DNA of 64,000 bases from Candidatus Kerfeldbacteria bacterium (GCA_016182555.1 JACPGJ010000008.1:220272-284271), one strand, 5' to 3'; shown: positions 12,596-58,102, counted from the stretch's first letter. Numbers and translations: made by a program. Notes: generated from the sequence alone by a model not told the origin.

Positions 12596-12639
12596 GTGAG
12601 TTATATTATACACAACTGAATATTCAGGCAAATAGAAAA

Positions 12640-20250: not shown

Positions 20251-20263
20251 ACATATATAGAAT

Positions 20264-20296
20264 ATAGACGTATTTTAGACGATAATTAGACGATTG
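20264..20296 (-). promoter_or_regulatory. three direct repeats TAGACG(A/T) phased at 11 bp upstream of the Fic gene 19225..20250
   Basis: ataTAGACGtatt ttTAGACGataa ttTAGACGattg at 20265, 20276 and 20287, i.e. one helical turn apart. Confidence 0.4.
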
Positions 20297-20331
20297 TCAA
20301 GCACCCTAGCGGTCTTGGCGATCTTAAAATT

Positions 20332-20847: not shown

Positions 20848-20894
20848 ACCTATTCCATAATTTTTTTATGCATACAATCATTATTACAAAGTAA

Positions 20895-43522: not shown

Positions 43523-44476
43523 TTAGAACTTTCGCACTGGGCAGGGTTCAGTATAATTTTTTTCGTATCTATCGCAGAATTGTTCAATCGTGAAATGGTG
43601 TTCTTGGCTGCCGTAGTGTTCAATCGCATACGCCGCAGCCACAGAACCGAAGCGACCCATCTGTTCAAGTGTCGCACCAATCGCAATACCTTTTAATACT
43701 CCGGCACGATAGGCATCACCGGCGCTGGTGGTGTCTACAATCGCGTCACTTGATACCCGCGGAATATGAATAGTTTGGTCTCGGGTTTGAATACGCGAAC
43801 CATCTCCCCCGAGCGTAGTGATAAGCGTTTCTGTCCACTGTAAAATTTCCAATTCACTTATACGGAATCGCCTCTTTACGGTTTCTAACTCATATTCGTT
43901 AATCGTAAGCATTGTTGCGCCTTCAACAAGCCGACGAAAATCGGATTTTGCATAGCGCGCAATCGTTTGGCCAGGATCAAAAATATATCGAATGCGTTCT
44001 CGCATGCATTGGTGGGCGTATGCAATCGTTTCATTGTTGTTGTCACGCGGTGACAAAATCATGATCGTTTGCGCAGGGTTGAAATCAGCGGTACTAAATG
44101 GGACATTGCGATGAAGCGCACCCGGATAAAAAAATGCTACTTGGTAATGTTCGTCGTCGTTGACCACCGTGAATGTCGATGTTTGTGCATCTGGATAGAC
44201 TTCAATATATTCTGTTGAAATACCAAGTCGCTGGAGATGCTGAAGATATTGTTGCCCATCGCCACCAATCGCGGATAAAATAATCGGTTGTTCACCAAGC
44301 ATTTTTAACGTATACGCAATGGCTCCCCCGCCGCCGCCAAACCGAATCTTTGTATCATCGATGAGAAGTGAGAGATTTAATTTGTGCAACTGATCAACCA
44401 AAAATGCATCTTGAAAGCGCCCAGGATAGTGCATAATCCGATCAAAATCGAGTGTACCGTGAACAAGAATATTCAT
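43523..44476 (-). CDS. PfkB-family carbohydrate kinase (ribokinase-like)
   Basis: N-terminal GG motif, C-terminal DTTSAGDAYRAG (PfkB signature 2); track start is GTG at 44518, ATG at 44474-44476 used; overlaps the upstream gene stop by 4 nt. Confidence 0.7.
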   Translation of the reverse strand: MNILVHGTLDFDRIMHYPGRFQDAFLVDQLHKLNLSLLIDDTKIRFGGGGGAIAYTLKMLGEQPIILSAIGGDGQQYLQHLQRLGISTEYIEVYPDAQTSTFTVVNDDEHYQVAFFYPGALHRNVPFSTADFNPAQTIMILSPRDNNNETIAYAHQCMRERIRYIFDPGQTIARYAKSDFRRLVEGATMLTINEYELETVKRRFRISELEILQWTETLITTLGGDGSRIQTRDQTIHIPRVSSDAIVDTTSAGDAYRAGVLKGIAIGATLEQMGRFGSVAAAYAIEHYGSQEHHFTIEQFCDRYEKNYTEPCPVRKF

Positions 44477-45177
44477 ATCGCAACGATTTTCAGCAATTCT
44501 TGCACTTGTGTTTCCCACTGTGGCGCAGGATCAAAAAGATTTGTAAGCTGTTGCACTAATTCAAGTAATTTTTTAGTTTGCGATTGTAAATCGTGTCTGA
44601 TTACCGTTTCGTTTTTTGTTTTTTGGAGTTCTTTTCTGAGATTGCTACATTTATGCAATTGAGTCTGAACCTGTTTTTTTATCGCTATATTCTGTTGTTG
44701 GTTTACATCTTGTTGCATGTTCTGCAAAATCATTTCCAAGAAAAATATCTGGTCACTCACTTCGTTTTTCCAGTCGTCATCTTTGGTGATAACCTCTATT
44801 TTTTCCTCTGGTTCTTTTTTTGAAGAGATTAAGAGTGCTGTATAGGGCTGTATACTGCTACGCAACTCACCCGCGACGAGAGAAGCTGCGTCTGAAGAAG
44901 AGGCTTGAAGTATTTGTTCTATTTTTTGAAGCAGCGGTAAAAGCTCTTCTCTTCTTTGTTCAGAATATGTTCTATAATCGTTTGATACAGATTGAATGGG
45001 GATGACCACTTCATCTTGAAATTGATCGTAAGTGTACCCATAATTGTCTGGGGAACTGCGTGCATTTCTCATAATCCATACGCGTATATGAAACAACAGC
45101 ATACCTATCTCATACAGGCGCGTATCGTGCTCCCGGTCATGATGAACAATTTTTCTTTCTAATCGAATTTCAGACAT
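44473..45177 (-). CDS. hypothetical coiled-coil protein
   Basis: 234 aa, Q/E/K-rich C-terminal half; coupled to pfkB. Confidence 0.35.
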   Translation of the reverse strand: MSEIRLERKIVHHDREHDTRLYEIGMLLFHIRVWIMRNARSSPDNYGYTYDQFQDEVVIPIQSVSNDYRTYSEQRREELLPLLQKIEQILQASSSDAASLVAGELRSSIQPYTALLISSKKEPEEKIEVITKDDDWKNEVSDQIFFLEMILQNMQQDVNQQQNIAIKKQVQTQLHKCSNLRKELQKTKNETVIRHDLQSQTKKLLELVQQLTNLFDPAPQWETQVQELLKIVAI

Positions 45178-45194: not shown

Positions 45195-46964
45195 TTAAAT
45201 TATTTCAGCATTATAACACTCTTTGCAATAGATTATTTCTTTGCGGTCTGGTGCGTATGCGGTTTGAAATGTTCGTGAACACAGCGTATCAGCGTGATCA
45301 TGTGTTGCCGTATTGGTGTACACTCCATTTTCGGATTGACTGCCTGCACACTGACACGTTTGTTTCCACAGTTTGCGTGGATCACGATGACTTAATCGTT
45401 TTTGAAAACGACAATCTGCACAGCGCCGAGGGATTGGAATAGTGTGCTTCTGATAAAATGCAAATTCCGGCTGAGTGATTTTGAAATTCTTCTGGCAATC
45501 GATACAGGCAAAAACGTGCTTTGTTACATCTGCGGAAACATCACTAATAGTATCTGGCATATCACTCCACTGAATTGTTTCTTTTCTATATGTTCCCGGC
45601 AAATCTTTTTTCCAACGCAATCCTTCCGCCTCCACTTCTGTTTTTGTTTTTGGATACCATTGTTGAACCGTTGATTCATTATATGCATACGGCGATAAAT
45701 GCATAGGGAAAAATTCTCCCCACTCACCTGTTTGTTTCATGTGGGCAATCAATTTTTCTTTCAGCATCGCGAATTCTTCGGGAGTATATTCTTTATTCAA
45801 AATCGCATACTTTTTTTTCCGCAAACCCGCACATCCAAACAAATTTTCTGTACTATGACAACTATCCACATATTGTGAATCACGTAAGTCACGACAAGCA
45901 TGTGCAAAAGCAATATTATATAATCGAGCGCCATTTTGTATCTCGTAGAGTAATTCACAATTCATACCGACTTGATCACAATCCATAGAATCTACTATTC
46001 CACCAGAATCAGATATATATGCGCAATTATTTGCATCAATCGTGTCAAAACTTTTTCGTACATTATTACAATGCTGTAAATAATTTCCTGAAATATTTTC
46101 ACTCGTACGAATAGATATTTCGTGTCGAGGAATTTGTTCTGTATATTCCCAAAATTCTTTTTGTAGTTTTTCTATCGTTTGTGTATCACTAAAATTGAAT
46201 AACTGGAGTTTTTGAAAATACTCTTCTTTTGTGTACTGCACATTCCGTATACAATATTCAGCATTTTTCAAATTTACACACTGAAAACAATTTGAAGAAT
46301 TATGACAATTATAGAGGAATAAAGAATCGGTAATATGCGTGCTGTTATAAATAAATCGCGAGTTATAACAATGTGTAATATCTTGAGAATCGTAACATAA
46401 TTGTGAATTCAATGTAAAAGAACAATCAATACAATCATTTGAGGCGCTTGTCCAATACGTATAATATAACCGTTGGCTCGAGAAACTAAAAATAGCGAGA
46501 TAAGAATCGACGATATTCTCCACTTCATTACAAAACTCACTATTTTCTGATTTCAAATTTACTAAAGAAATACGTGGAACAGCGAGCAATAATTCTTGGA
46601 ACTGCTCAAAAAATGGACGACTGAAATCAATAGCGCGTGCGAATGTGGCTGCATCCCATTTGTCGCTCCACCAACACGTTGGACAGTAAATGGTGTAGGG
46701 TGAATCTGCGGAGTAGGTGGAAATAATTTGTTTGTTACACAAATCGCAGGTTCGTGAATATAATACGCGTTCATTGCGCCACGCAAATCGACGCCTATTT
46801 CGGCAATCCGCGCACCACGTCGGCGCGGGCACTTGAATCTTTTCATAAAACACAAAATCTTCGGGTTCAACCGTAAATTCCTGTGCACAATTTTGGCACT
46901 GCCGTTGTTCGGCTTGTTGATTCGACATACCTGAACAGTATATCAGCCTCTCGCTTGAAAGCAA
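45195..46964 (-). CDS. Cys-rich hypothetical protein with duplicated zinc-ribbon-like terminal modules
   Basis: N-terminal CQNCAQEFTVEPEDFVFYEKIQVPAPTWCADCRNRRRFAWR and C-terminal CIDCQKNFKITQPEFAFYQKHTIPIPRRCADCRFQKRLSHR are clear internal repeats; the central region has Cys pairs every 20-30 aa. Confidence 0.4.
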   Translation of the reverse strand: MLSSERLIYCSGMSNQQAEQRQCQNCAQEFTVEPEDFVFYEKIQVPAPTWCADCRNRRRFAWRNERVLYSRTCDLCNKQIISTYSADSPYTIYCPTCWWSDKWDAATFARAIDFSRPFFEQFQELLLAVPRISLVNLKSENSEFCNEVENIVDSYLAIFSFSSQRLYYTYWTSASNDCIDCSFTLNSQLCYDSQDITHCYNSRFIYNSTHITDSLFLYNCHNSSNCFQCVNLKNAEYCIRNVQYTKEEYFQKLQLFNFSDTQTIEKLQKEFWEYTEQIPRHEISIRTSENISGNYLQHCNNVRKSFDTIDANNCAYISDSGGIVDSMDCDQVGMNCELLYEIQNGARLYNIAFAHACRDLRDSQYVDSCHSTENLFGCAGLRKKKYAILNKEYTPEEFAMLKEKLIAHMKQTGEWGEFFPMHLSPYAYNESTVQQWYPKTKTEVEAEGLRWKKDLPGTYRKETIQWSDMPDTISDVSADVTKHVFACIDCQKNFKITQPEFAFYQKHTIPIPRRCADCRFQKRLSHRDPRKLWKQTCQCAGSQSENGVYTNTATHDHADTLCSRTFQTAYAPDRKEIIYCKECYNAEII

Positions 46965-46966: not shown

Positions 46967-47311
46967 CTACAAATAATGAAATTCTACGTTTTCTTCTGAA
47001 AGAATAACCACGACTTTTTTCTGTAATCTTTTAAGAAGAACCAGAGTATTCAAAAGTAGCAACAAATATTTCAGCGTATTTTTAGGTCGTTGATTATAAA
47101 AACGTAAAAGAATTATAGACGATTGTATTTGCTGTAAAAAATCTTTATCGTGAGTGATAATGATGAAATTTTTTCGCCCAGCGTATACAACTAATTCTTT
47201 ATCTGTTTTTCCATACCACCCTTCTTCTTTAACATCAATAATTTCATGTCCAGCTTCACGCAAACCGAGTACAACTGAACGAGCAACATTTTCATCTGTG
47301 AGAAAATGCAT
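46967..47311 (-). CDS. DUF5615 (PIN-like) toxin-type protein
   Basis: MHFLTDENVARSVV...FIIITHDKDF. Confidence 0.6.
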   Translation of the reverse strand: MHFLTDENVARSVVLGLREAGHEIIDVKEEGWYGKTDKELVVYAGRKNFIIITHDKDFLQQIQSSIILLRFYNQRPKNTLKYLLLLLNTLVLLKRLQKKVVVILSEENVEFHYL

Positions 47312-47313
47312 AT

Positions 47314-47613
47314 TTATCGCGCATGAACCACGCTCAACTTCAGTGGTATAATTTCTTCACGCGAAACAGCATGCTTTGCAAATGCAAGAGCAGCTTCTAG
47401 ATCAGCTTTTTTGATGTGATCGTATTCTGCAATAATTTCATTAAACGACATTCCGGAACGCATCAATTCCAAAATAAACTCCACTGAAATACGAGTCCCT
47501 TTAATCAGTGGTTTTCCTCCTAATACATCAGGGTTGCTGACAATACGTTTTGAAAATGTATTCATATTTTTCCTTTCTATATACAATATACGATAAAGTA
47601 CCGCCTCTGTCAA
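47314..47613 (-). CDS. DUF433 antitoxin-type protein
   Basis: GGKPLIKGTRISVEFILELM; 2-nt gap to the DUF5615 gene, the known DUF433/DUF5615 pairing. Start likely at the internal MNTFSK. Confidence 0.6.
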   Translation of the reverse strand: MTEAVLYRILYIERKNMNTFSKRIVSNPDVLGGKPLIKGTRISVEFILELMRSGMSFNEIIAEYDHIKKADLEAALAFAKHAVSREEIIPLKLSVVHAR

Positions 47614-47638: not shown

Positions 47639-49891
47639 CTAGACCAACGGCGCTTCAAATGTCTGATCTGCGGTATCATCCGCTACTGGAGGCGGAACGA
47701 CGGAAGCAGTAGGGACGGATTCGGCTGGAACCGCGGATTTCACCACGGGTTGTGCCGCTGACTTCGTAGCAGGCTTTGGGGCGGGACCGGCGATCTCCGC
47801 TTCCACGTCACCTAGCGGCGTGGCATATTTTCGGCGACTTGCGGCAATACACTGCTCCGCAATACCACTCTTGAAATCTGGGTCAGCGACATCTGCACTC
47901 ATGGCACTAAACGCTGGTGTCACCACACCATCAATCGAAATCTTCAAATACATTTCGCGAACACCCAAATTCATAATATCATAGGCTGAAAAACGTGGCG
48001 CAAATTCGTTGGCCACATATTGCGCGTCTTCGGCACCTAAACGAAAGGTAATCATGGAACCGACATTACCAAACACCGTTTCACGCGTTGCCGGCAACAA
48101 TTGTCCCAAATACTGATGCGACACCGTTAAATTCAAGCGATATTTACGCGCTTCAGACAAAATATTATCAAACGTCTTCGTAGCGAAATTTTGAAACTCA
48201 TCGACGTACAAGTAAAAATCTTTACGCTCGTCTGCGGAAACCAATGCCCGCGCCATAATATGCTGTTCAATTTTCGTAATAATTAACGAACCAAGCAATG
48301 CCGAATTTTCTTCTCCCAACTTCCCCTTAGATAATTCCACCAACAAAATACGTTGGTTATTCATAATGTCATCAAAATCCACTTTGTTCATTTGCTGGGC
48401 CACAATATTGCGCACCATTTCGTTCGACAAAAATTGACCCAGCTTGTTCACTAACGGAACAATCGCTTCATTATCAAATTTTTCTGACCAACTGGAAAAT
48501 TCATTTGCCCAGAATTTTTTCACCACATGATCTTGAATTTCCGCAATCACTGCTTGGCGGTAAGATCGATCAGTCAACATTTGCTGCATGCCCATGATCG
48601 TCGCTTTATGATAATCGAGCAACGCGAGAATGGTAAAACGAAATACATGTTCGATTTTCGGTGACCAATCTGCACCAAAAAATTTCTTAAAAATTTCAAT
48701 CATTCCCTGCGCCACTTGCTGTTTTAAATCGCGCGAAACATTCGCAATCGGGTTAAAGGCAATCGGAAATTCTAAATCTGATGGGCTGAAATAGACCACA
48801 TCTTCGGTGCGCTCTTTCGGCACATGGTACAACAGCGCTTGAATCAAGTCGCCATGAGGATCAATCACACACACCCCTTTGCCAGCCACGATATCATTGA
48901 TAATTAACTTTTCCAACAATTTACTTTTGCCAACACCACTCTTCCCAACAATATATAAATGGCGACGACGGTCGACACGCTTAATACCAAATTCCACAGC
49001 CGTACCACGAAAATTGGTAACACCAAAACGCGACAGCTCCGCAGGCGAAGTATTTTTTAACGTCGGTAAATTCATCGGCGGTTCAGCTTTGCGCGAATAG
49101 ACCCAATTGACGCCACGAATTTTTGAAACCGGGTCCGGTGCGTGAAATAGCAACGCTAACTCTTCGGTATTGACCATTCCACTCGAACGCTGCGCATGGG
49201 AAAAGTAATCATTCACCAACGTTTGGGTATCAGGAAATACATTCACCCGTAAATATTTTTGTTCCGTAGCGAGTGGGCTAAACACATGCTGCAACGTGGA
49301 TGTCGTGATTTCCGGATCTTCAGATCCATCCGTAAAATACAACATTCTCACCGTCGCTTGGAAATGTGGCTTTTCATCTTCCCGTACTTCTTTCTCCACA
49401 ATACTGTACATACTTCCCTCTTCTGCGACCATCGATTCATCAATCGGGCTCAAAATGAGTTGATAAAAAATAGCATCGTGCGAAGAAACCTGCGCAAAGG
49501 TGTTGAACAACACGTTCAGCGGATCTTCAGAAAATGTTTCGGCAGAACGCAAATGCACCGCTTCACTACCAACCAAACGCACCTTTAAACCTACAGCTTG
49601 CGGTGGCACATTCGCGATATCAATATACTGATCCACTTCCTGAATGTGGGTATCTGGAAAAAGTGCAAATAAAAATGCCATCACGGCATTCACTAATGGT
49701 CGTGGGCAAATGATATAAAAATTGATCGCTCCATGAATTTGCACAATTTCCACCGAAATACTAGCAGTGTTAGCGACCAATAAATGAAAAATATTATAAA
49801 ACAACAATTCGAATTGTTTGATACGAGCGAGTGGCGGCTTTCCGGAATCTTCGAACGGAAACCGCAAATGCAACATGGTGGCATTATTCAT
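47639..49891 (-). CDS. TrwB/TraD/VirD4-like (type IV coupling protein family) P-loop ATPase with ~300-aa N-terminal domain and Pro-rich C-terminal tail
   Basis: GKSGVGKSKLLEKLIINDIVAGKGVCVIDPHGD (Walker A, then (R/K)G..V(I/V)DPxGD as in TrwB); Walker B YLYVDEFQNF; no N-terminal TM segments. Confidence 0.55.
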   Translation of the reverse strand: MNNATMLHLRFPFEDSGKPPLARIKQFELLFYNIFHLLVANTASISVEIVQIHGAINFYIICPRPLVNAVMAFLFALFPDTHIQEVDQYIDIANVPPQAVGLKVRLVGSEAVHLRSAETFSEDPLNVLFNTFAQVSSHDAIFYQLILSPIDESMVAEEGSMYSIVEKEVREDEKPHFQATVRMLYFTDGSEDPEITTSTLQHVFSPLATEQKYLRVNVFPDTQTLVNDYFSHAQRSSGMVNTEELALLFHAPDPVSKIRGVNWVYSRKAEPPMNLPTLKNTSPAELSRFGVTNFRGTAVEFGIKRVDRRRHLYIVGKSGVGKSKLLEKLIINDIVAGKGVCVIDPHGDLIQALLYHVPKERTEDVVYFSPSDLEFPIAFNPIANVSRDLKQQVAQGMIEIFKKFFGADWSPKIEHVFRFTILALLDYHKATIMGMQQMLTDRSYRQAVIAEIQDHVVKKFWANEFSSWSEKFDNEAIVPLVNKLGQFLSNEMVRNIVAQQMNKVDFDDIMNNQRILLVELSKGKLGEENSALLGSLIITKIEQHIMARALVSADERKDFYLYVDEFQNFATKTFDNILSEARKYRLNLTVSHQYLGQLLPATRETVFGNVGSMITFRLGAEDAQYVANEFAPRFSAYDIMNLGVREMYLKISIDGVVTPAFSAMSADVADPDFKSGIAEQCIAASRRKYATPLGDVEAEIAGPAPKPATKSAAQPVVKSAVPAESVPTASVVPPPVADDTADQTFEAPLV

Positions 49892-49893
49892 AA

Positions 49894-52074
49894 CTATAGG
49901 TCTAATGGTGCTGCTGTTGATTGAGAAGAATGTTGCAAAGACGATGAGCTGCCTCCAGCACCAGCTGGTTGTTGGCCGCCACCTCCACCACCACTTTTCT
50001 TACGACGCCTTCGACGACGCTTCGCACTCGCACTCGTTTGTCCTGAAGCCGGCGATTGGCTTTGACCTGAACGTTGTGTTTGCGGCTGGGGTTGACGTTG
50101 GGGCGGACGAGAGAGTGGCGGTTGATCTTGACCTTGAGGAATATGGGCTGCTTGTGGCCGAACTTGCGTTGGCTTTGCTGGAGATTGTGGTGCAGATTGT
50201 TGTGGAAGCATCTGCGGCAAGACAACACGTTGCGGTTGGTTCCCGCTGGGTGTCGCCGATTGTGGTGACTGAGATGCGGAACGTACTGGCTGAGGTTGAA
50301 TTTGAACCTGTCGTGGCGCTTGTGGCTGTGGTCGCGGTGAAGGTTGCGGTTGGACTTGCGCACGATGTTGTACTGGTTGAGGCTGACGTTGGGCTGGTCG
50401 CGGCGACTGCGATTGAGGTTGACGCGATTGTTGTGGTTTGCGATCCAATTTCTGGGGCATGGATTTCTGTGGTGAAGGTGTAGGAGCGAGAACTACTGCT
50501 GGTGATGACGAAGGAAACCCGGATAAAAAATTAATTTCTCTATCTCGAAGTTCATCAATGTCATTTTGTGGCCGTGCTATCGTTGCTGCTTTCGGTGCTT
50601 TCGGTGGTGGAGGCGGTGCCGCTAGGCCCTTTTTTTTATTCAATTGTTCTGTTTCCGCTGCTCCTTCATTCTTTTCTTGCTGTTTTTCATCTTCTGTTTT
50701 TGTGTTCGTCATGGGCTCATCCACAGTATCGGCTTCATCAATGTCAACGTTAATATCAGACCACTTCATAATATTTTCTTCTACCGCGGCACGATTTTTT
50801 GCATATCGCTCACGCGACAACTGAATGACTTTTTCTTTATTTCCCGTTTCTCCCGTCAGCGGCGGTAAGGTGCTCGCAGAAAATGGGCTGGAAGAAACAC
50901 CATCAATCATCAAACGCAAATAAATATGATGTGCGGGTAGTGTTACTAAATCTTCTTGCATAAATGTTGGCTGGAATTCCTTTTCTAATTCCTCCGCATC
51001 CGCTGCACCCACACGAAACGCAATTAACGTACCCACATTACCAAATACGGCTGGAGCCACTACCTCGTTGAGCTGTTCAATATATTGGTGAGCCAAAATT
51101 AAATCCAGCCGATATTTTCGCGCCTCAGATAAAATGCCCGCAAAGGATTCGGTTGCAAAATTTTGAAACTCATCGACGTACAAATAAAAATCGCGCCGTT
51201 CTTTTTCCGGAATATTCACACGGCTCATAGCAGCCAGTTGCATTTTGGTAATCATCATCGCCCCAAGCAGCGCCGAATTTTCTTCACCAATGCGACCTTT
51301 GGCTAAATTCATCAGTAAAATTTTCCCAGAATCCATCAATTCACGCATATCAATTGTACTGCGGGTTTGACCGACAATATTGCGAATCAACTGCGAAGAC
51401 AAAAATTGTCCCACTTTATTCTGAATCGGCGCAATCGCTTCATTGCGAAATTTTTCCGAATAGTTATTGTATTCGTTCACCCAAAATGAACGCACGACCG
51501 GGTCGGTAATTTTTTTCAATATTTTTTTTCGATACCGTGTATCCACCAACATGCGTGTCACCCCCAGCAAGGTGGACCCGGGGTTTTCTAACAACGCCAA
51601 AATCGTGTTAATCAAAATATATTCCAAGCGGGGGCCCCACGAATCGGCCCAAATCTTTTTAAATACACCCACTAACCCATTCGATACCAGATTTTTATAT
51701 TCCGGGCTAACACTTTCCAAAATATTAAACGCAATGGGATAATCCAAATCTGCTGGGTTAAAATAGACCACATCATTAATACGGTTGTTCGGAACAAAGT
51801 TCACCACTTTTTCTACTAAGTCTCCGTGCGGGTCAACGACTGCCAAACCACGACCTTCGCGAATGTCTTGAATAATCATATTTTCCAACAACGTCGATTT
51901 GCCCATACCGGTTTTCCCAATCATGTACATGTGGCGCCGACGATCATCTTCCTTAATACCAAAACTACGGAACTCATTCCGAAAATTTGTTTGCGCAAAT
52001 ACCACTGGCTTATCCTGGTGTGGTGGAATCGATGCCGGGGCGGGTTGATCGTTTGGTGGCAATGGTTTATCCAT
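49894..52074 (-). CDS. paralogous TrwB/TraD-like P-loop ATPase with ~280-aa Pro/Gln-rich low-complexity C-terminal tail
   Basis: GKTGMGKSTLLENMIIQDIREGRGLAVVDPHGD, YLYVDEFQNF; 2 nt from the upstream paralog. Tail PQPQ.../RRRRRRKKSGGGGGG. Confidence 0.55.
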   Translation of the reverse strand: MDKPLPPNDQPAPASIPPHQDKPVVFAQTNFRNEFRSFGIKEDDRRRHMYMIGKTGMGKSTLLENMIIQDIREGRGLAVVDPHGDLVEKVVNFVPNNRINDVVYFNPADLDYPIAFNILESVSPEYKNLVSNGLVGVFKKIWADSWGPRLEYILINTILALLENPGSTLLGVTRMLVDTRYRKKILKKITDPVVRSFWVNEYNNYSEKFRNEAIAPIQNKVGQFLSSQLIRNIVGQTRSTIDMRELMDSGKILLMNLAKGRIGEENSALLGAMMITKMQLAAMSRVNIPEKERRDFYLYVDEFQNFATESFAGILSEARKYRLDLILAHQYIEQLNEVVAPAVFGNVGTLIAFRVGAADAEELEKEFQPTFMQEDLVTLPAHHIYLRLMIDGVSSSPFSASTLPPLTGETGNKEKVIQLSRERYAKNRAAVEENIMKWSDINVDIDEADTVDEPMTNTKTEDEKQQEKNEGAAETEQLNKKKGLAAPPPPPKAPKAATIARPQNDIDELRDREINFLSGFPSSSPAVVLAPTPSPQKSMPQKLDRKPQQSRQPQSQSPRPAQRQPQPVQHRAQVQPQPSPRPQPQAPRQVQIQPQPVRSASQSPQSATPSGNQPQRVVLPQMLPQQSAPQSPAKPTQVRPQAAHIPQGQDQPPLSRPPQRQPQPQTQRSGQSQSPASGQTSASAKRRRRRRKKSGGGGGGQQPAGAGGSSSSLQHSSQSTAAPLDL

Positions 52075-52098
52075 AGAAACAATGAGTTGAGCAAGAAA

Positions 52099-53754
52099 TT
52101 AGGCGAAGGGTAAATTGGCAGGTGGTTGTCCTTTCTGGTTTGGATCACTGCTTTGTTGCGTGGGTGTCGGTATATTCGTGGGCCCAGGCACTGGTTGGGT
52201 CGGAGTGGAACCACCACTTGGCGATGGCGACAAACGCTTAATAGGACGGACATTTGGTGGTAGCCCAGCCATAGAACGAGTAAGGTCCACTTGCGGTGTT
52301 GCTGTACCACCAGAAGGAGGCGGGGGTGGCGGTGGCACAATACTGCGTTGTGGCAAACCCGAAGGCGGTACTGGAATTTGCTGCCCAGAACTAGCAGAAT
52401 CTGGGCTAGATGCTGGTTCAACCATTTGCTCAGCAGAGGGCTGCAATACTGTTGACGGTATATCGAATGGTAAACGTGCTGGGGGTTCGGATTTTTTTGA
52501 TACCGTTTTGGTTACCAGCGGTGCCTTCACTGTCATTACTGGGAAATGGAAGATACTCGCAATTTCGACATTCGATAGGACTTGCTGCAATTCCCCTTCC
52601 CAGTTAGATCGTCCTTTATATGAATTAAAAATTCTATTTTTTCTCACGTTCTGTTGCCACGTTGGGAAAATATATGCTGGCAAGTTCGTACGAGTACGAC
52701 GACCGTACACTAACGCATTTAAGTCCGTGGTATTAAATTGTTTGATAGAACCCTGAATGGCCGCAGCAACACGTGGTGGGCTAAAAATTTCTTTGGGTGC
52801 AATATAAATGAAGCGAAATTTACATTGAAACGGGATACGGGCAATCTTTTTCTGAATCTCAACAATAACCTGCTGTTCACCGGTGGTTAAATTCAAATAA
52901 TTTCCTAAACTATCTGGTACAGGTGGTGGTGGTGGCGTAATTCCGGTAGCGGAAAAGAGGGCATTATGGATCCCCTCGAGTAACACCAATGGCGCATCTA
53001 ATATTTTATCCACCGTGTTTCGCGTACTCCCTTTTTTCCTACCAATCAATTTTTCGAATTCTGCCACTCCCTTATCACGCCACGAAAATGCTTGTGGGGT
53101 AATAACAAATTGCAACCATACCTGCTCACCCGGACGCAAGCGGCTCATAATTTCCAAAATAGCCGCCATCGGGTCTGCAAATATTCCTGTTAATGGATGT
53201 TCAAAATACTCGTATGTTTTTATTGGATACACATCAGATTTAGCGAGCACGAATTCTACCCCAAACAGATCAAATTTTGGATCAGGGTACTTCTGTGGCG
53301 CATTCGGTACATAGTCCTCGACCTCCACAATTTCTGCATCTGGATACTGTGCAAAAATCGCTCCCTTCACTAAGTCGACATTATAGGTATCGCAACGAAT
53401 AAAATATTGAATATACCCATCAATACTCACCAATTCCAAAGAAAAAGTATCCAAAAACATTCCTTGCCACCATTTCTGCTTAAACGTAAACGGAATAAAC
53501 ACGCCATGCATATTCGCAATAATCTGCTCTACCGCTTTCATACTCTGTTCATTCAACTTGGGCACATCAATAGCGAGTAACACCTGTTTTTTACTTTTTG
53601 CATACATTCCCCATATCCAAAAAAACCACGTATCTTTCACCATGAAATAAAACACAGGCAAGAAAGCGATCCAGCCGCCGGCACGAAATAATTGGATGAG
53701 TCCTTGAAATGGATTATGTGCATCTCCAAGGAGTTGTTGAACAATGCTCTCCAT
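52099..53754 (-). CDS. membrane protein with Pro-rich C-terminal region, unknown function (linked to the ATPase pair)
   Basis: N-terminal TM helix GGWIAFLPVFYFMVKDTWFFWIWGMYA; PPPPPPPSGG and P/S/T-rich tail. Track start is TTG at 53766; ATG at 53754 used. Confidence 0.4.
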   Translation of the reverse strand: MESIVQQLLGDAHNPFQGLIQLFRAGGWIAFLPVFYFMVKDTWFFWIWGMYAKSKKQVLLAIDVPKLNEQSMKAVEQIIANMHGVFIPFTFKQKWWQGMFLDTFSLELVSIDGYIQYFIRCDTYNVDLVKGAIFAQYPDAEIVEVEDYVPNAPQKYPDPKFDLFGVEFVLAKSDVYPIKTYEYFEHPLTGIFADPMAAILEIMSRLRPGEQVWLQFVITPQAFSWRDKGVAEFEKLIGRKKGSTRNTVDKILDAPLVLLEGIHNALFSATGITPPPPPVPDSLGNYLNLTTGEQQVIVEIQKKIARIPFQCKFRFIYIAPKEIFSPPRVAAAIQGSIKQFNTTDLNALVYGRRTRTNLPAYIFPTWQQNVRKNRIFNSYKGRSNWEGELQQVLSNVEIASIFHFPVMTVKAPLVTKTVSKKSEPPARLPFDIPSTVLQPSAEQMVEPASSPDSASSGQQIPVPPSGLPQRSIVPPPPPPPSGGTATPQVDLTRSMAGLPPNVRPIKRLSPSPSGGSTPTQPVPGPTNIPTPTQQSSDPNQKGQPPANLPFA

Positions 53755-53784
53755 GAACGATTTCAATTTTTATTTGTATCTCTA

Positions 53785-54918
53785 TTATGCACCAGAAATG
53801 GCAGTTGGAACAGGGGGTTCTGCCAATGTATATTTCCCGTCATTGGTCTTCCGAAATATATGTTTATCTGTTAACGCTAAATGAATCGTATTTTTCTTCA
53901 CAATACGTTGTTGTAATACGCGCTCAACAATTTCGCTGCGCTGCAACGGCGTACCGGCTTTTTTCAATATTGCCACAATGACGTTCGATACCACCCCATC
54001 AGTAAAGCCCCATTCACGTAATGCGTAAATGCCACGCCCCACAAGCACATATTCAGGGTTGAGGATGAGTTCGTTATGCACCGTGGGCGGATACGCTTGT
54101 TTTTTAAAAATTTTAGTAATGCGACGAGCAATTTCTTCAAAATGCATTGGTTTCCCCTCTTTCTTCAGCACCAAATACACGCGGTCATTCATACGCTTTG
54201 GTAAAATGAGCCCCCATTCGGTTAAACCATATTCATCAAACGGATTTTTTGAAATTTTTGCAGAAATATCGATATAGGCAAGTACCGCGTCTTCTGTCAG
54301 CTTCTGCTGATTCGCGATATAAAATGGCTTTTGCACAAATGCTTCAAACAACTCATCAAATATCTTCGGCGTGCCAATTTCACGAATCACCGCTTCTAAC
54401 GCAGCAATACTCTGATCGACAAATTCCATCGATGCTAAAACCAACTTCCATCCTGGCAAATATTTTTTCGATTTTGGAATTGGTGTGAGCTTATCATTCA
54501 ACAATTCGTTCAAAATAAAAGCAATACTCTGCCGATTCTGTGACGTATCATCATTGGCAGCCAGCAGGACATCAAACATCATTTCACGAGTCATGACACC
54601 CCCGTGTTGGTTTAATAACGAAATGACTAAATGTTCCACAGGCTTAATCACTTCAGCAAATGCCGGAGACGCTTTCATTTTGGCAATGGACTGGCTTTCA
54701 ATCTGCCGTATGCGTTCCCGAGTAACATGATACAAGGAACCAATTGTTTCTAATGTCTCCTTACCTTGTTCTGTTAAACCATAACGACGCCGCAGAACAT
54801 CTGCTTCTTTAGATGACAACGTTTTTAAGAGAGTAGTAAGTATTTCTAATGGATGAAATAACTGTTTTTCCTGGTCTTCTTTACTGGAGAGTACGCGATC
54901 AAGTATTGAATCTGCCAT
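53785..54918 (-). CDS. protein with N-terminal sigma-70 region-4-like HTH and a ~280-aa uncharacterised C-terminal domain
   Basis: LSSKEADVLRRRYGLTEQGKETLETIGSLYHVTRERIRQIESQSIAKMK matches sigma70 region 4.2; no region 2 present. Confidence 0.5.
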   Translation of the reverse strand: MADSILDRVLSSKEDQEKQLFHPLEILTTLLKTLSSKEADVLRRRYGLTEQGKETLETIGSLYHVTRERIRQIESQSIAKMKASPAFAEVIKPVEHLVISLLNQHGGVMTREMMFDVLLAANDDTSQNRQSIAFILNELLNDKLTPIPKSKKYLPGWKLVLASMEFVDQSIAALEAVIREIGTPKIFDELFEAFVQKPFYIANQQKLTEDAVLAYIDISAKISKNPFDEYGLTEWGLILPKRMNDRVYLVLKKEGKPMHFEEIARRITKIFKKQAYPPTVHNELILNPEYVLVGRGIYALREWGFTDGVVSNVIVAILKKAGTPLQRSEIVERVLQQRIVKKNTIHLALTDKHIFRKTNDGKYTLAEPPVPTAISGA

Positions 54919-55015
54919 AGACTTCTAAATGTTTAGTATAGTGAATATACCATATCCTTGCTCTGGAGTCAAATTTGTCGTTTAGTCAAAATGAGAGTAT
55001 ACTAAAATAAATTGA

Positions 55016-55480
55016 ATGACTATTCTCGCTTATATGGCAACAGATCCACTCGATCTTCCACTAGAAAACGATCAATATTCTTCAACATCCAACGGAAATA
55101 TGGAAAAAATGGATGAAGGGAATGCAGATCAAAATACAGAAGGGATTGATTTTGAAAAAACCACGCATCAAGTACAGCTCGCTATTCAATATGTGAACGA
55201 AACACGGGCAGATTTTGAGCAAGCTGGGCCGCAACCATGGGTTAATCAACTGATAGATATACTCAACACCGCACTCAAGAGTATCCATGAATTAGAAATG
55301 GTGCATGTGGATGACCTGGTCGACTGGACTGATGAATTTGGTGATACCCATCAAATCATGGTGCGTTTGGTTGACGAAGAAGGCTTTGACCGCGTGATGA
55401 ATACGTATACGTCTGCAGAGAAACAATTTGAAGAGTATTTCAACAAACACTTGAAAATGATTGGCGAGGAGACAGCCTAA
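55016..55480 (+). CDS. acidic hypothetical protein
   Basis: 154-aa ORF divergent from the sigma-r4-like gene. Confidence 0.3.
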   Translation: MTILAYMATDPLDLPLENDQYSSTSNGNMEKMDEGNADQNTEGIDFEKTTHQVQLAIQYVNETRADFEQAGPQPWVNQLIDILNTALKSIHELEMVHVDDLVDWTDEFGDTHQIMVRLVDEEGFDRVMNTYTSAEKQFEEYFNKHLKMIGEETA

Positions 55481-55497: not shown

Positions 55498-56391
55498 TTA
55501 TTTTTTGAGTATTTTTTGGCCAACGAGCAATAACGGACTGGCAATAAATATAGAAGAATAGGTACCGAAAATAATACCAATCAAGAGGGTGAAGACAAAA
55601 TGGTGAATGGATTCGCCACCAAACAAATACAGAACCAGTAATACCAAGAGGGTTGCCAGCGAAGTATTCAGGGAACGCGCTAAGGTGGTATTAATACTGC
55701 TGTTTATAATTTCACGAAATGTTTTTGTGGCGCGGTCTTTCAACCCTTCACGAATACGGTCATAGACGACAATTGTATCATGCACAGAAAAGCCAAGAAT
55801 GGTCAGAAGTGCAGTGACGAAGAGTGAATCTATTTGGACATCAAAAAAGTGACCCAACAGAGAAAAAACTCCTAGAACAAGCAAAATATCATGTGCTAGC
55901 GCGATAATGGCGGATAGCCCAAATACCCAAGAGGGAACGGGCCCTTGCGACACTTTTCGGAATGCATAAGAGATATAGGCGACAATGGCCAAAAGCACAA
56001 GCAATAGGGCGGTGACAGCCTTATGTTTGAGTTCAGCGCCAAGGGTAGGGCCAATCGTGGAAAAACTCTGCTCCGTTACTCCTTTATCCGTAAACAATTG
56101 CAATATCTGTTCGCGTTGGTCGTTATTAATATATGGCAATTTAATCAGTAAATCGGTATCGCCAGCTGTTTGTATGCGTTCATCAGTAATATTGACTGTA
56201 GATAATGCCGCGCTCATCTCATCTATACTTGGGCGGGAGGCGGTGTCAGGAAAATGCAGCTGAATGGAACTACCTCCGGTAAAATCGATACCTAATTTCA
56301 ACCCCCATACTGCCAAAAAAACAACACTCACGAGTGCAGAGACAAAGGAGATCGTCGCCCAATATTTTGAGGTATCAATAATTCTATACAT
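55498..56391 (-). CDS. secF: protein translocase subunit SecF
   Basis: Six-TM SecF pattern (GLDFTGGSSIQLHF..., ...IVVYDRIRE...). Confidence 0.85.
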   Translation of the reverse strand: MYRIIDTSKYWATISFVSALVSVVFLAVWGLKLGIDFTGGSSIQLHFPDTASRPSIDEMSAALSTVNITDERIQTAGDTDLLIKLPYINNDQREQILQLFTDKGVTEQSFSTIGPTLGAELKHKAVTALLLVLLAIVAYISYAFRKVSQGPVPSWVFGLSAIIALAHDILLVLGVFSLLGHFFDVQIDSLFVTALLTILGFSVHDTIVVYDRIREGLKDRATKTFREIINSSINTTLARSLNTSLATLLVLLVLYLFGGESIHHFVFTLLIGIIFGTYSSIFIASPLLLVGQKILKK

Positions 56392-56395
56392 AAAT

Positions 56396-58102
56396 TTATT
56401 TATCGTGTTGTTTCATCTTGCGTACGCCAAACCAAGCCACATTGTTAATACGGAACAGACCAAGCAGATTGCGAGTGATGGTGATGGCAGAGAACATACT
56501 GACCACAATACCAATCGCCAGTGTAATAGCAAAACCGCGAATGAGTGAAGACCCAAACCAGTACAAAATGAGACAAGTAATCAACGATGACGCATTTGAA
56601 TCGCGAATAGATGTCCACGCACGCTTGAATCCATCATGAATACTTTGGCTTACCGGTTTGCCACTGCGCAATTCTTCTTTCATGCGTTCAAAAATGAGTA
56701 CGTTCGCATCCACCGCCATACCGATAGAGAGAATAAAACCCGCAATACCCGCAAGCGTAAGGGTTACTGGCCAGAGTTTAAAAATAGCGAGCACGAGTAA
56801 TGAATAGATACAGAGGGCAATAACCGCCATAAACCCGGGCAAGCGATAATACACGGTCATGAAAATAGACAAGAGGAATAGCCCAAGGACGCCCGCGAAT
56901 AAACTGCGTTCAATAGATTCTTGACCAAGGGTAGGACCAATATTTTGCTGGCTAATTAAGGTAATGGGTACCGGCAGTGCGCCAGCATTCAGGCGTTGCG
57001 CTAACTGCTTAGCTTCTTCTAAGGTGAAGCTACCAGAAATAACCGCTTCTCCCGTATTAATCTCTTGCTGCACAACTGGTGCACTAATAATTTTATTATC
57101 TAAATAGATCGCCACTGTTTTCCCCACATTGTCACGGGTAATTTGAGCAAACAAATCTTTTCCCTCGTCATTAAACTTTAAGCTGACTGTTGGTAAGCCC
57201 GTGTTGGGTTCAAAGGTGACATCAGCACGATCAAGTTGTTCACCAGTGAGAGCAGTGTCAACATAATTTGGGCCGTTTTGCGCGGGTGTTTCTGGAATTT
57301 TACGCAATAGAATATGGTGTGCCGTCGCTTTTGCATTCACCGCTTCTTGCGCTGGCTGGTCCCCTTCTGCGGGTTTGGCTGGTACCGCATCTGTGCGGCT
57401 ATCGACACGAATAATATGATAACCAAAATCCGTTTCCACAATTTCTGGGTAAATTTTACCAACCTCTGCCTTAGTAAATACCACATCATCAAATGGCGGA
57501 ACTGTATCGCCCTGCTCAAATTCATCTAACACACCGCCTTTATCTTTTGAACCGGGGTCTTGCGAATTTTCGCGAGCGATTGCTTCAAAATCGGCACCTT
57601 CCGCTTGGGCCTGTACTAACAAACTTTCTGCTGTTTGCTTGGTCTCTTCATTTTTCTTGCGAATTTGTTCTTTTTGTTCGTCGGTATATTCTGGCGGTGG
57701 ACCTTCCGTTTTAAATGCCAAAGTCGGTGTTTCGCCAATGCGGGCAATCGCTTGAGAAATATCGGTTACGCCAGGCAATTCTACCAGCACACGCCAAGAT
57801 TCATTAGAACGAGTGGTTTGAATAGTCGGCTCACTCACACCAAAAGCATTGATTCGGTTTTCAATCACATCACGAACACCATCAAGTGCACCTTGCTGGT
57901 CAGCGACATCAATGTTCGAAACATCAGCGTCATATAATAAAGAAACACCACCTTGCAAATCAAGACCGAGTTGCACTTTGAGTTCACGCTGAATGTTACC
58001 AATATGTAGATTTGGACCTTTTGGATAATCCACAACGCCTGCCAAAACAGTTAACGCCAAAATACCCAATAACCCTAACCGAATTTTTGTCCGCATTTTC
58101 AT
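56396..58102 (-). CDS. secD: protein translocase subunit SecD with a parvulin-type PPIase domain inserted in the periplasmic P1 head
   Basis: SecD core (LGLDLQGGVSLLY, VIENRINAFGVSEPTIQ, IYLDNKIISAPVVQQEI, C-terminal TM bundle). An insert AESLLVQAQAEGADFEAIARENSQDPGSKDKGGVLDEFEQGDTVPPFDDVVFTKAEVGKIYPEIVETDFGYHIIRV aligns almost residue by residue with E. coli PpiC. Confidence 0.8.
   Translation of the reverse strand: MKMRTKIRLGLLGILALTVLAGVVDYPKGPNLHIGNIQRELKVQLGLDLQGGVSLLYDADVSNIDVADQQGALDGVRDVIENRINAFGVSEPTIQTTRSNESWRVLVELPGVTDISQAIARIGETPTLAFKTEGPPPEYTDEQKEQIRKKNEETKQTAESLLVQAQAEGADFEAIARENSQDPGSKDKGGVLDEFEQGDTVPPFDDVVFTKAEVGKIYPEIVETDFGYHIIRVDSRTDAVPAKPAEGDQPAQEAVNAKATAHHILLRKIPETPAQNGPNYVDTALTGEQLDRADVTFEPNTGLPTVSLKFNDEGKDLFAQITRDNVGKTVAIYLDNKIISAPVVQQEINTGEAVISGSFTLEEAKQLAQRLNAGALPVPITLISQQNIGPTLGQESIERSLFAGVLGLFLLSIFMTVYYRLPGFMAVIALCIYSLLVLAIFKLWPVTLTLAGIAGFILSIGMAVDANVLIFERMKEELRSGKPVSQSIHDGFKRAWTSIRDSNASSLITCLILYWFGSSLIRGFAITLAIGIVVSMFSAITITRNLLGLFRINNVAWFGVRKMKQHDK

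Follow-up and report, generated by a model that had tools for sequence, protein, structure and literature searches.

The genes considered in this study, from a Candidatus Kerfeldbacteria bacterium (Patescibacteria), are best read as two non-canonical type IV coupling protein (T4CP) modules that are conserved across the Patescibacteria and that probably serve a type IV secretion system (T4SS) of that phylum encoded elsewhere in the genome. I put the probability of this reading at about one half. The genes lie within a stretch of 64,000 nt (GCA_016182555.1 JACPGJ010000008.1:220272-284271), referred to here as the window.

That orphan T4CP homologues occur in Patescibacteria is already known, having been reported in 2025. 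The available text of Quinonero-Coronel et al. (2025; PMC12102498) gives 5,713 VirD4-like homologues in 2,918 of 3,035 Patescibacteria genomes, or about two per genome, only 148 of them near virB4; VirB4 itself is given for 2,417 genomes, about 500 fewer. The orphan homologues are the same genes as ATPase-A and ATPase-B below. Its authors raise the possibility that the orphans have been exapted, and the same text mentions neither DUF87 nor DUF8128 and does not take up which genes surround the orphan T4CPs.

Gene content of the locus

Features of the locus are collected in Table 1. The four open reading frames first noted, at 47639-54918, have the coordinates originally given, including the gap of 2 nt between the two ATPase genes. 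Their order must be turned around, however: all four genes are on the minus strand, so that the order of transcription is SIG, TM-DUF8128, ATPase-A, ATPase-B, with SIG first rather than last. The promoter-like site upstream of SIG is only suggestive, since such sites in the region are not more frequent than in shuffled sequence.

Table 1. Features of the locus, with coordinates counted from the first nucleotide of the window.
Feature	Position	Strand	Remarks
Promoter-like site TTGACT-17-TATATT with TG	54944..54972	-	consensus scan; upstream of SIG, in divergent intergenic DNA of 97 bp
SIG	53785..54918	-	377 aa; first gene of cluster; Sigma70_r4 + HARE-HTH
TM-DUF8128	52099..53766	-	555 aa; single-pass membrane protein; DUF8128
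ATPase-A (clade A)	49894..52074	-	726 aa; TrwB_AAD_bind
ATPase-A core	aa 21-440	-	T4CP-type
ATPase-A Walker A GKTGMGKS	51895-51918	-
ATPase-A Walker B	51157-51186	-
ATPase-A disordered Pro/Gln/Ser tail	49897-50754 (aa 441-726)	-	286 aa; from composition
ATPase-A polybasic/Gly run in tail	49975-50022	-
ATPase-B (clade B)	47639..49891	-	750 aa; T4SS-DNA_transf, DUF87
ATPase-B soluble DUF8128-like N-domain	49037-49891 (aa 1-285)	-
ATPase-B EPPMNLP linker motif	49064-49084	-
ATPase-B T4CP-type core	47792-49036	-
ATPase-B Walker A GKSGVGKS	48923-48946	-
ATPase-B Walker B	48185-48214	-
ATPase-B FEAPLV, end of short acidic tail	47642-47659	-
DUF433 antitoxin-like and DUF5615/PIN-like toxin-like genes	46967..47613	-	Pfam
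CYS	45195..46964	-	577-589 aa; outside the region of the original prediction

The two genes that follow ATPase-B match DUF433 (4.5e-23), DUF5615 (5.5e-18) and PIN_10 (6.7e-10) in Pfam, have a promoter-like site of their own (47613..47585) and are missing at the equivalent position of related loci. They are probably an inserted toxin-antitoxin pair and no part of the module. Their presence within the cluster, the existence of homologues in phages and weak PADLOC matches of the ATPases (mad8 1e-15, HerA 1e-8) might be taken to indicate an anti-phage defence system of the HerA/DUF87 or MADS mad8 type, or the remnant of a mobile element. This is very improbable. Conservation within the family is far stronger than any of the PADLOC matches, and a nuclease, Sir2 or methylase partner is missing. 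Moreover, the genes occur almost universally in the phylum, in synteny with housekeeping genes, and their GC content does not set them apart from the window.

Coupling-protein cores and the DUF8128 domain

By sequence, both ATPase cores are of the coupling-protein (TrwB/VirD4) type, in a non-canonical form. The profile searches proposed with the original prediction place both above curated Pfam cut-offs: ATPase-A matches TrwB_AAD_bind (44.6 bits, cut-off 20.5; E 1.2e-11), with TrwB itself (1e9r, E 1.1e-6) as its best sequence match in PDB, and ATPase-B matches T4SS-DNA_transf (30.4 bits against a cut-off of 20.1) and DUF87 (33.7 bits against 23.2). Both have the RecA-like nucleotide-binding domain of the VirD4/FtsK/HerA type and, as first noted, its Walker A motif, the VVDPHGD or VIDPHGD signature and YLYVDEFQNF. 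The signature conforms to the T4CP motif G-(K/R)-G-x-x-V-(I/V)-D-P-x-G-D of VirD4, TrwB, TraD and PcfC (IVDPNGD in TrwB), and the proteins share with T4CPs the Walker A/B nucleotide-binding core and may share the all-alpha insertion as well. Only TrwB and DotL are found as nearest solved relatives by sequence. When the family profile is aligned by hhalign to R388 TrwB, the probability is 91% (E 1e-6) over 256 columns from Walker A to Walker B, unbroken across TrwB residues 117-394, a span that includes the all-alpha region; against R388 VirB4 (TrwK) it is 7%, and the P-loop alone is aligned. The ATPases score far below every NCBIfam equivalog cut-off (e.g., 47 bits against 250).

Other families of the superfamily were considered and rejected. 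No match to AAA_10 or CagE_TrbE_VirB was found, and the VirB4 model TIGR00929 gives E 1.5e-4 (20 bits, cut-off 643). FtsK_SpoIIIE gives nothing beyond a sub-threshold match to the P-loop of a homologue. Matches to DUF87 (24.7-33.7 bits, cut-off 23.2) and to the HerA model of PADLOC are weak, and no nuclease gene is adjacent. There is thus no firm placement with FtsK, or with HerA and a partner nuclease, either of which the original prediction had named as telling against it. FtsK/SpoIIIE, which belongs to this superfamily and is a hexameric DNA pump tethered to the membrane, resembles ATPase-A in its long disordered segment rich in Pro and Gln, but the ATPases lack its alpha and gamma domains, the disordered segment here is C-terminal instead of a linker, and a bona fide FtsK coexists with them in Southlakia.

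One departure from classical T4CPs concerns the membrane domain. As originally noted, an N-terminal transmembrane anchor is missing: no anchor-like hydrophobic segment was found in either ATPase. In place of two helices in the same chain, clade A (the lineage of ATPase-A) has one helix supplied by DUF8128, either fused or as a separate single-pass protein, and clade B (that of ATPase-B) has none. Here the single-pass anchor is provided in trans by the neighboring DUF8128 protein; in Saccharibacteria the DUF8128 gene is fused to that of the ATPase.

TM-DUF8128 is identical (100%) to database protein P0241, for which, as for most homologues of ATPase-B, precomputed matches to PF26449 (DUF8128) exist; the local copy of Pfam, whose models do not include PF26449, gave no match. 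The NCBI annotation probably begins instead at the ATG at 53754, for a length of 551 aa. The protein consists of a hydrophobic helix (aa ~30-56), retained in homologues, the DUF8128 domain (aa ~60-435) and a disordered tail (aa 436-555) with 26% Pro that contains PPPPPPP and ends in PPANLPFA, in agreement with the Pro-rich membrane protein first described. Its AlphaFold2 model has pLDDT >90 over aa 57-400, a long N-terminal helix (15-54) and a tail below 50.

The predicted fold of DUF8128 resembles the N-terminal domain of VirB4. When the model was compared with PDB by Foldseek, the top 11 matches were all TrwK/VirB4 (E 7e-5 to 5e-3). The similarity between DUF8128 and VirB4 is at the level of fold only, with TM-scores of 0.27-0.31 and nothing found in profile comparisons. 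The arrangement is also that of VirB4 (TrwK, TraC, PrgJ), in which an alpha/beta domain of about 350-400 aa precedes a C-terminal ATPase, and the fact that the two parts may be separate or fused, preceded by a membrane helix, recalls TrsD+TrsE and VirB3-VirB4. Unlike VirB4, however, the core aligns with TrwB and not with TrwK, and the N-domains have no sequence similarity.

ATPase-B carries a related domain of 285 aa at its N-terminus, which had been overlooked. It is homologous to the 555-aa TM-DUF8128 (BLASTP 6e-9; profile E 8e-32) and matches the DUF8128 family with a profile E of 8e-20.

Two lineages and their partners

The cores of ATPase-A and ATPase-B are 48% identical over 412 aa (E 6e-143). 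Judged from comparison of their sequences, they represent two phylum-wide orthologous lineages, ancient sister copies that did not arise by local duplication. In 83 Patescibacteria loci, sorted into clades by a neighbor-joining tree, the SIG family is directly upstream in 32 of 61 clade-A loci as against 1 of 22 in clade B, and CYS is nearby in 17 of 23 clade-B loci as against 3 of 65 in clade A. Among fused proteins, an N-terminal hydrophobic segment is present in 22 of 33 from clade A and 1 of 16 from clade B. Clade A is accordingly tethered to the membrane via DUF8128 and has a long disordered tail, and clade B is soluble. The "tandem paralogues" of the original prediction are therefore two clades whose partner genes differ and which in this genome happen to lie side by side.

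The tail of ATPase-A is 17% Gln, 16% Pro and 11% Ser and includes KRRRRRRKKSGGGGGG. Both the Pro/Gln-rich tail and its Arg/Lys/Gly run had been described, but attributed to the second paralogue; the bearer is the one upstream in the direction of transcription. Of 62 clade-A tails, 19 have a polybasic run. The Pro/Gln composition is confined to this genome, the orthologous tails being rich in Lys, Glu, Pro and Ser, and a condensate role is therefore without comparative support; nothing was found in favor of the condensate-forming module that had been suggested. Clade-B proteins instead end in a conserved acidic F-x-x-P-Φ-Φ peptide, and 19 of 24 have the C-terminal motif x-P-[LIVM]-[LIVM]. A disordered C-terminal tail finishing in a short motif is found also in TraD of the F plasmid, whose acidic tail binds TraM.

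SIG was first described as having sigma region 4 as its only recognizable part. Region 4 is there (Sigma70_r4, E 1.3e-11, Pfam match aa 30-82, domain aa 25-93; closest in PDB to region 4 of primary sigma factors, E 3e-12), but so are winged-helix/HARE-HTH domains at aa ~242-340 (HARE-HTH, E 1.2e-8; PF05066, 35.6 bits against a cut-off of 25.9), with a match to TIGR04567 (E 2e-8, 34 bits) under its cut-off of 42. Region 2 was not found, and every NCBIfam sigma match is to region 4 alone, far below cut-off. SIG thus lacks the combination of regions 2 and 4 that is characteristic of sigma-70 family sigma factors and could not act alone as one; nor is it an ortholog of RNA polymerase delta, since the acidic tail of delta is absent.

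It is conceivable that SIG is a general RNA-polymerase-associated factor controlled by TM-DUF8128 and ATPase-A, the membrane motor sequestering, releasing or remodeling it upon contact with the host, and that the linkage is regulatory, like that of sigma and anti-sigma factors, rather than mechanistic. A region 4 like that of primary sigma factors, the part that contacts the beta-flap and the -35 element, together with a HARE-HTH as in delta would suit such a role, as would the lack of stand-alone activity and a gene order, SIG and then membrane protein, that mimics sigma/anti-sigma operons. Furthermore, the SIG ortholog of Southlakia (SEML1_0294), in which Sigma70_r4 and HARE-HTH are both present, is essential by Tn-seq, and the adjoining clade-A ATPase (SEML1_0293) is dispensable. 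I nevertheless consider this quite unlikely: no coupling-protein ATPase is known to me to act on a transcription factor, about half of the evaluable clade-A units have no SIG upstream, and clade B and CYS are left unexplained. A gene for a small DNA-binding protein directly upstream of a coupling protein is familiar from trwA-trwB of R388.

CYS probably starts at the ATG at 46928. At either end is a pair of Cys4 zinc ribbons; the protein also has a beta-helix at its center and a region of helices, and its Cys positions are invariant. The AlphaFold2 model (pLDDT 82, pTM 0.83) finds only weak left-handed beta-helix matches in PDB. There are 3,749 homologues at E up to 0.001, and those with a named source are all from Patescibacteria or unclassified bacteria. 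Paralogues adjoin clade-B ATPases in arrays of 1-9 copies. CYS has no recognizable secretion signal, and to be translocated it would need to be unfolded at its four zinc sites; both points count against the T4SS reading.

Association with type IV secretion

Full-length homologues with the DUF8128-plus-ATPase architecture are encoded by two phages of Bacillus. The gene for gp156 of phage G (profile E 2e-79) is separated by 16 nt from the VirB4-like gene that precedes it (NCBIfam CD1110, 3e-51) and is near genes for VirB6-like (TrbL_4) and VirB2-like pilin proteins. In phage JL, gp150 (phrog_5156; profile E 1e-42) precedes a Replic_Relax relaxase-like gene, with a single base between them. Neither SIG nor CYS was seen beside these two genes. 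That the phage homologues belong to conjugation-like gene sets favors a connection with type IV secretion over a wholly separate machine. The non-canonical translocation module originally proposed is upheld insofar as the ATPases are T4CP-like and have no two-helix membrane domain, but the phage homologues draw it closer to type IV secretion than was supposed.

In the Patescibacteria loci compared here such linkage is not seen. Pfam (about 45 ORFs) and HMM scans (all ORFs) found no VirB4-, relaxase- or pilin-like gene in the window, as had been stated, and within 10 kb of the 83 loci there is no VirB4 or VirB6 homologue (by jackhmmer) and no relaxase-like homologue. The absence of VirB4 and VirB6 from both the window and the 83 loci counts against the T4SS link, as do the greater number of genomes with T4CP homologues than with VirB4 and the fact that DUF8128 is like VirB4 in fold only.

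Unlike known T4CPs, the ATPases of Patescibacteria are chromosomal, near-universal and divided into two lineages with non-conjugative partners. They could be exapted nucleic-acid motors independent of type IV secretion, with RNA as their substrate or else DNA, whether chromosomal or entering the cell, clade A at the membrane and clade B in the cytoplasm, with SIG and CYS as nucleic-acid-binding specificity factors. I regard this as possible but doubtful. It would account for genes that are set in core housekeeping neighborhoods (SecDF, ClpB, RF1, NrdDG, topoisomerase I) and are commoner than VirB4 but in the 83 loci never adjacent to it, for partners of DNA-binding type (sigma region 4 with winged helices; basic Cys4 zinc ribbons) and for the recurrent polybasic run, and exaptation is what the available text of PMC12102498 raises. 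It would account also for a clade-A ortholog that is non-essential in Southlakia, where the T4SS is essential. Yet the role of DNA motor is already filled in Southlakia by a canonical FtsK, itself essential; genes for nucleases, recombinases or competence are not among the conserved neighbors in the related loci; DUF8128 resembles the domain that docks VirB4 to the secretion platform; and the closest homologues outside the Patescibacteria lie within VirB2/VirB6/VirB4/relaxase-like gene sets.

The reading preferred here, two T4CP modules serving a T4SS encoded elsewhere in the genome, might work as follows. Each ATPase, with its TrwB/VirD4-type core, intact Walker A and B motifs and predicted all-alpha insertion, would probably form a hexamer, by analogy with TrwB, and DUF8128, in place of the two-helix membrane domain, may dock the motor on the inner-membrane platform of the T4SS. 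SIG, TM-DUF8128 and ATPase-A would make up the first module, tethered by a single helix. Its long, disordered and often polybasic tail may recruit cargo or nucleic acid, and the putatively co-transcribed SIG may act as a DNA-binding adaptor, in the manner of TrwA with TrwB and of TraM with TraD, or else as a regulator of the module. The second, soluble module would consist of the DUF8128-ATPase-B protein and one or more CYS proteins, the F-x-x-P-Φ-Φ peptide perhaps binding the basic zinc-ribbon ends of CYS, as client or adaptor.

The T4SS cluster of Southlakia is essential and has no recognizable coupling protein (PMC10633639). The dispensability of SEML1_0293, as against the essential T4SS and SIG ortholog, means that a simple chain from SIG to ATPase to T4SS is not the whole story. 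A bolder proposal, which I consider unlikely, is that clade B and the CYS arrays form a dedicated client-loading branch of the essential T4SS, and that the CYS proteins are carried by it into the host cells of the epibionts, as the first such family of cargo or effectors to be identified, being recognized through the acidic F-x-x-P-Φ-Φ tail of a soluble coupling protein with a VirB4-like N-domain.

The T4SS of Patescibacteria is the first shown to be essential for the growth of its owner, and its cargo has been described as "completely unknown" (PMC11665869). The partner proteins and architecture described here may hint at what the motors load into this machine. The conserved partner of each lineage is a concrete candidate for cargo or adaptor, SIG being essential and CYS a large family, in arrays and so far restricted to Patescibacteria, and since Saccharibacteria are already open to genetics, such hypotheses can be put directly to experiment. 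The replacement of the classical membrane domain by one like the N-domain of VirB4 bears on the divergence of the VirB4 and VirD4 ATPases. If the modules should prove independent of the T4SS, they would represent a new, phylum-wide use of a conjugation motor.

Organization of the locus and its surroundings

The four genes of the locus, part of a Candidatus Kerfeldbacteria (Patescibacteria/CPR) chromosome, all lie on the minus strand (Table) and are therefore transcribed in the order SIG (a protein with sigma region 4 and HARE-HTH domains), TM-DUF8128 (a single-pass membrane protein), ATPase-A and ATPase-B, with intergenic gaps of 18, 24 and 2 nt. The features that the original prediction had read from the DNA are all present: the ATPase motifs and the near contact of the two ATPase genes, the tail rich in Pro and Gln that holds an Arg/Lys/Gly run, and the Pro-rich tail on the membrane protein. 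A consensus scan places a promoter-like site directly upstream of SIG, in a scan for promoters and terminators whose site numbers did not exceed those in shuffled sequence.

The locus extends beyond the region originally described, since a gene for a Cys-rich protein (CYS) follows ATPase-B, after an inserted pair of toxin-antitoxin type. A strong promoter-like site (TTGACA-17-TATATT) at the DUF433 gene of this pair suggests that the annotated TTG start of that ORF is too far upstream. Two further proteins flank the module genes, one acidic and one rich in Gln and Lys. They have no Pfam match and no homologue across 83 related loci, and for the latter reason I leave them out of the module.

Beyond these, the flanks are housekeeping genes: those for SecD/SecF and ClpB, and also RF1, PrmC, ribosomal protein S2 and EF-Ts. 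The position of SecD/SecF directly upstream of module 1 (SIG, TM-DUF8128 and ATPase-A) recurs in two related loci and may reflect simple shared ancestry. The genes might also be read as a defence system or mobile element, to which PADLOC matches to mad8 and HerA could point, but those matches are weak and the genes are part of the core genome, making this reading unlikely.

Elsewhere in the window, the left part has the look of an island of defence and addiction genes, in which an EcoRI-type adenine methylase adjoins an ORF that is possibly its cognate endonuclease. Also encoded there are a RhuM-family protein, a protein combining GmrSD-N with HNH, and three Fic/DOC proteins, of which one is fused to a fragment of RhuM. 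On the other side of the locus lies a gene for what is probably a cell-surface protein of 1547 aa. In locus L002, the equivalent place between SecDF and the SIG gene is occupied by a DUF11-type protein (PF01345, CLIPPER) and a sortase.

Table. Features of the window (unless a related locus, L, is named) with their coordinates.
Feature	Location	Strand	Remarks
SIG	54918..53785	minus	377 aa
TM-DUF8128	53766..52099	minus	555 aa
ATPase-A	52074..49894	minus	726 aa
ATPase-B	49891..47639	minus	750 aa
DUF433 + DUF5615/PIN-like pair	46967..47613	minus	between ATPase-B and CYS
Promoter-like site	47613..47585		at DUF433 gene
CYS	45195..46964	minus	window copy
Gln/Lys-rich protein	44473..45177	minus	234 aa, probably coiled-coil; downstream of CYS
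Acidic protein	55016..55480	plus	154 aa; divergent from SIG
(E)PPxxLP motifs	52468..52488; 49064..49084	minus	after DUF8128 in TM-DUF8128 and ATPase-B
PPANLPFA	52102..52125	minus	C-terminus of TM-DUF8128
SecD/SecF	58102..55498	minus	also L002 1..1980, L049 6634..9617
ClpB	43439..40812
Putative island	2368..7083 minus; 11588..12631, 19225..21782 minus		left part of window
EcoRI-type methylase	5959..7083	minus	adjoins 386-aa ORF
386-aa ORF	4777..5937	minus	no Pfam match
1547-aa protein	58295..62938	plus	right-handed beta-helix, Rha78A-like Ig, DUF11 domains
88-aa zinc-ribbon protein	L001 9637..9903; L007 4945..5211		Peregrinibacteria
Extra ATPase + 177-aa ORF	L055 9419..11275; L060 9292..11263		ATPase ~435 aa
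L085	NC_023719 85555-99117		Bacillus phage G, lytic
L086	NC_028982 94212-107240		Bacillus phage JL, lytic

The ATPase cores and the DUF8128 domain

Both ATPases score above the Pfam cut-offs for coupling-protein families, ATPase-A with TrwB_AAD_bind (44.6 bits, cut-off 20.5) and ATPase-B with T4SS-DNA_transf (30.4 bits, cut-off 20.1) and also with DUF87. All NCBIfam matches fall below threshold, the best being to VirD4-like CD1115 and TraD models, and among solved structures only the coupling proteins TrwB and DotL are related by sequence. A family profile built from 21 sequences matches TrwB, the coupling protein of plasmid R388, at 91% probability, with 256 aligned columns that start at Walker A, cross the all-alpha region and reach Walker B, whereas the same profile matches the VirB4 of that plasmid (TrwK) at 7%, over the P-loop only. 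These results argue that the motor, judged by sequence, is of the coupling-protein type, as originally predicted, and not a VirB4, FtsK or HerA. A role as FtsK replacement is ruled out, since Southlakia already has an essential canonical FtsK (SEML1_0096; Tn-seq, PMC10633639). In two related loci a third paralogue, highly divergent and lacking tail and N-domain, and a 177-aa ORF separate the TM-DUF8128 gene from that of the clade-A ATPase.

ATPase-B begins with a domain (residues 1–285) homologous to the soluble part of TM-DUF8128 (BLASTP 6e-9; family profile E 8e-32), identified by precomputed annotation as Pfam PF26449 (DUF8128). A conserved hydrophobic helix stands at the N-terminus of TM-DUF8128 and its homologues. 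A profile search of representative proteins puts the family at 3,306 clusters, with only close members among the matches listed. The AlphaFold2 model of DUF8128 is confident (pLDDT >90 over residues 57–400), and the top 11 Foldseek matches to it in PDB are R388 TrwK/VirB4 throughout (E 7e-5 to 5e-3; about 430–450 aligned columns). TM-scores are low (0.27–0.31); even true phage homologues reach just 0.39–0.41, since disorder takes up a quarter of the query. Neither a PDB profile search nor hhalign against TrwK or the VirB4-like gp155 of phage G gave a link at the level of sequence, so it is the fold search that backs the resemblance of the modelled domain to the VirB4 N-domain, which is likely though not proven.

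Both TM-DUF8128 and ATPase-B have a short motif, (E)PPxxLP, directly after their DUF8128 domain. TM-DUF8128 carries a further copy at its very C-terminal end, past some 110 disordered residues, and this terminal copy is kept in the family consensus as GxPPxNLP. A peptide of this type could dock on the ATPase core.

Two clades and their partners

The 83 Patescibacteria loci (80 from one-genome-per-species contigs and three from exact-protein look-ups) had their ORFs searched with the domains of the window. The tree of ATPase cores splits into two clades, both of them phylum-wide lineages, with ATPase-A in clade A and ATPase-B in clade B. The two window cores are paralogous as had been proposed (48% identity across 412 aa), but the tree and the partner associations rule out a local tandem duplication.

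Clade A is preceded by a TM-DUF8128 gene in Kerfeld-, Falkow-, Buchanan- and Doudnabacteria and others, and is fused to DUF8128 in Saccharibacteria (proteins of 830–1030 aa); among the fused proteins, 22 of 33 carry a hydrophobic segment at the N-terminus. The disordered tail (76–345 aa) differs in composition by lineage, and 19 of 62 tails, from both Kerfeldbacteria and Saccharibacteria, contain at least six Lys/Arg within eight residues. The condensate role suggested earlier thus finds no comparative support, because disorder is conserved and Pro/Gln composition is not. The earlier interpretation is borne out in part, for the coupling-like and non-canonical nature of the ATPases.

Clade B consists mostly of fused proteins of 745–768 aa, 15 of 16 without a membrane segment, and in 19 of 24 an acidic stretch precedes a C-terminal F-x-x-P-[LIVM]-[LIVM]. 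Partners differ as well. SIG lies directly upstream of clade A in 32 of 61 evaluable cases, as against 1 of 22 for clade B, while CYS (about 570 aa, in 1–9 tandem copies) occurs within 3 kb of clade B in 17 of 23 cases and near clade A in 3 of 65. Looser searches added no SIG or DUF8128 in loci missing them. The complete order of the module genes in the window is found again in L002, and clusters of A, B and CYS recur in four more loci (L015, L019, L040, L081), so module 1 and module 2 (the DUF8128-ATPase-B fusion with CYS) may cooperate.

Region 4 of SIG is of the primary-sigma type (PDB matches, 3e-12), and the protein also has HARE-HTH/winged-helix domains. It lacks region 2 and is therefore not a sigma factor. 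It is also possible that SIG and the membrane motor are linked through regulation. The CYS family comprises at least 3,749 proteins, named hypothetical or zinc-ribbon; those with a named source all come from Patescibacteria or unclassified bacteria. CYS has four invariant Cys4 sites, two per end, within basic sequence. A confident model (pLDDT 82) predicts a beta-helix and a helical region flanked by zinc ribbons at the two ends, for which PDB offers just weak matches to left-handed beta-helices (E about 0.02) and no functional lead. In Peregrinibacteria the protein is split: a zinc-ribbon-only protein is encoded immediately upstream of the clade-B ATPase and the beta-helix parts (about 320 aa) by separate genes, a hint that the zinc ribbon is what matters for the ATPase.

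Phage homologues and a possible relation to type IV secretion

The PHROG family phrog_5156 matches both ATPases (1e-63) and, in its N-terminal part, the DUF8128 protein. Its bearers include two phages with conjugation-like gene sets. Phage G encodes a homologue over the full length, gp156 (825 aa; profile E 2e-79), which begins 16 nt after the VirB4-like gp155 (CD1110 family, 3e-51; also AAA_10), near the VirB6-like gp153 (TrbL_4) and the VirB2/T4SS pilin-like gp150. The phage JL homologue, gp150 (profile E 1e-42), has a gene for an actin-like partition protein before it and, after one base, a Replic_Relax relaxase-like gene behind it. The deposited label of these phage proteins, "MsbA-like lipid A export", looks wrong. 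In its only contexts outside Patescibacteria, these phages, the DUF8128-ATPase architecture takes the coupling-protein position in a conjugation-like set with pilins, the same unusual combination that has been described (PMC12857230) for the secretion system of Patescibacteria.

The window ATPase genes are of a kind already known, the orphan coupling-protein homologues of Patescibacteria. The study of Quinonero-Coronel et al. 2025 (PMC12102498) reports 5,713 VirD4-like homologues in 2,918 of 3,035 genomes, just 148 of them near virB4, with VirB4 in 2,417 genomes, and considers exaptation possible. In the portion of the literature searched, no description turned up of the architecture, of the split into two clades, of the partner families or of the phage relatives, and no paper came up for "DUF8128" in a search of full texts.

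The analysis shows the family of the core, the arrangement with DUF8128, and two clades that each have their own partners; the best-supported reading is that the locus encodes two non-canonical coupling-protein modules. Their coupling to type IV secretion I infer from homology, from the gene contexts in phages, from the VirB4-like fold and from the lack of a coupling protein in Patescibacteria clusters: the essential Southlakia secretion cluster has no recognisable one (Wang et al. 2023, PMC10633639). The main evidence against such coupling is the lack of linkage to virB4 (no relaxase-, pilin-, VirB4- or VirB6-like genes were found near the Patescibacteria loci) and a distribution of the ATPases wider than that of VirB4. 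Furthermore, the clade-A ortholog is dispensable although the secretion system is essential. In the Tn-seq tables of Wang et al., SEML1_0294 (349 aa, Sigma70_r4 and HARE-HTH), the SIG ortholog, is essential, as is SEML1_0142 (1019 aa, a TraM-recognition-domain ATPase), while the clade-A type SEML1_0293 (921 aa, TrwB_AAD_bind at 402–719), immediately downstream of SEML1_0294, is non-essential. For these reasons a nucleic-acid motor working independently of type IV secretion stays a serious rival. With two coupling-protein modules as the preferred reading, the locus offers specific candidates, open to testing, for what passes through the hands of the essential secretion system of Patescibacteria.
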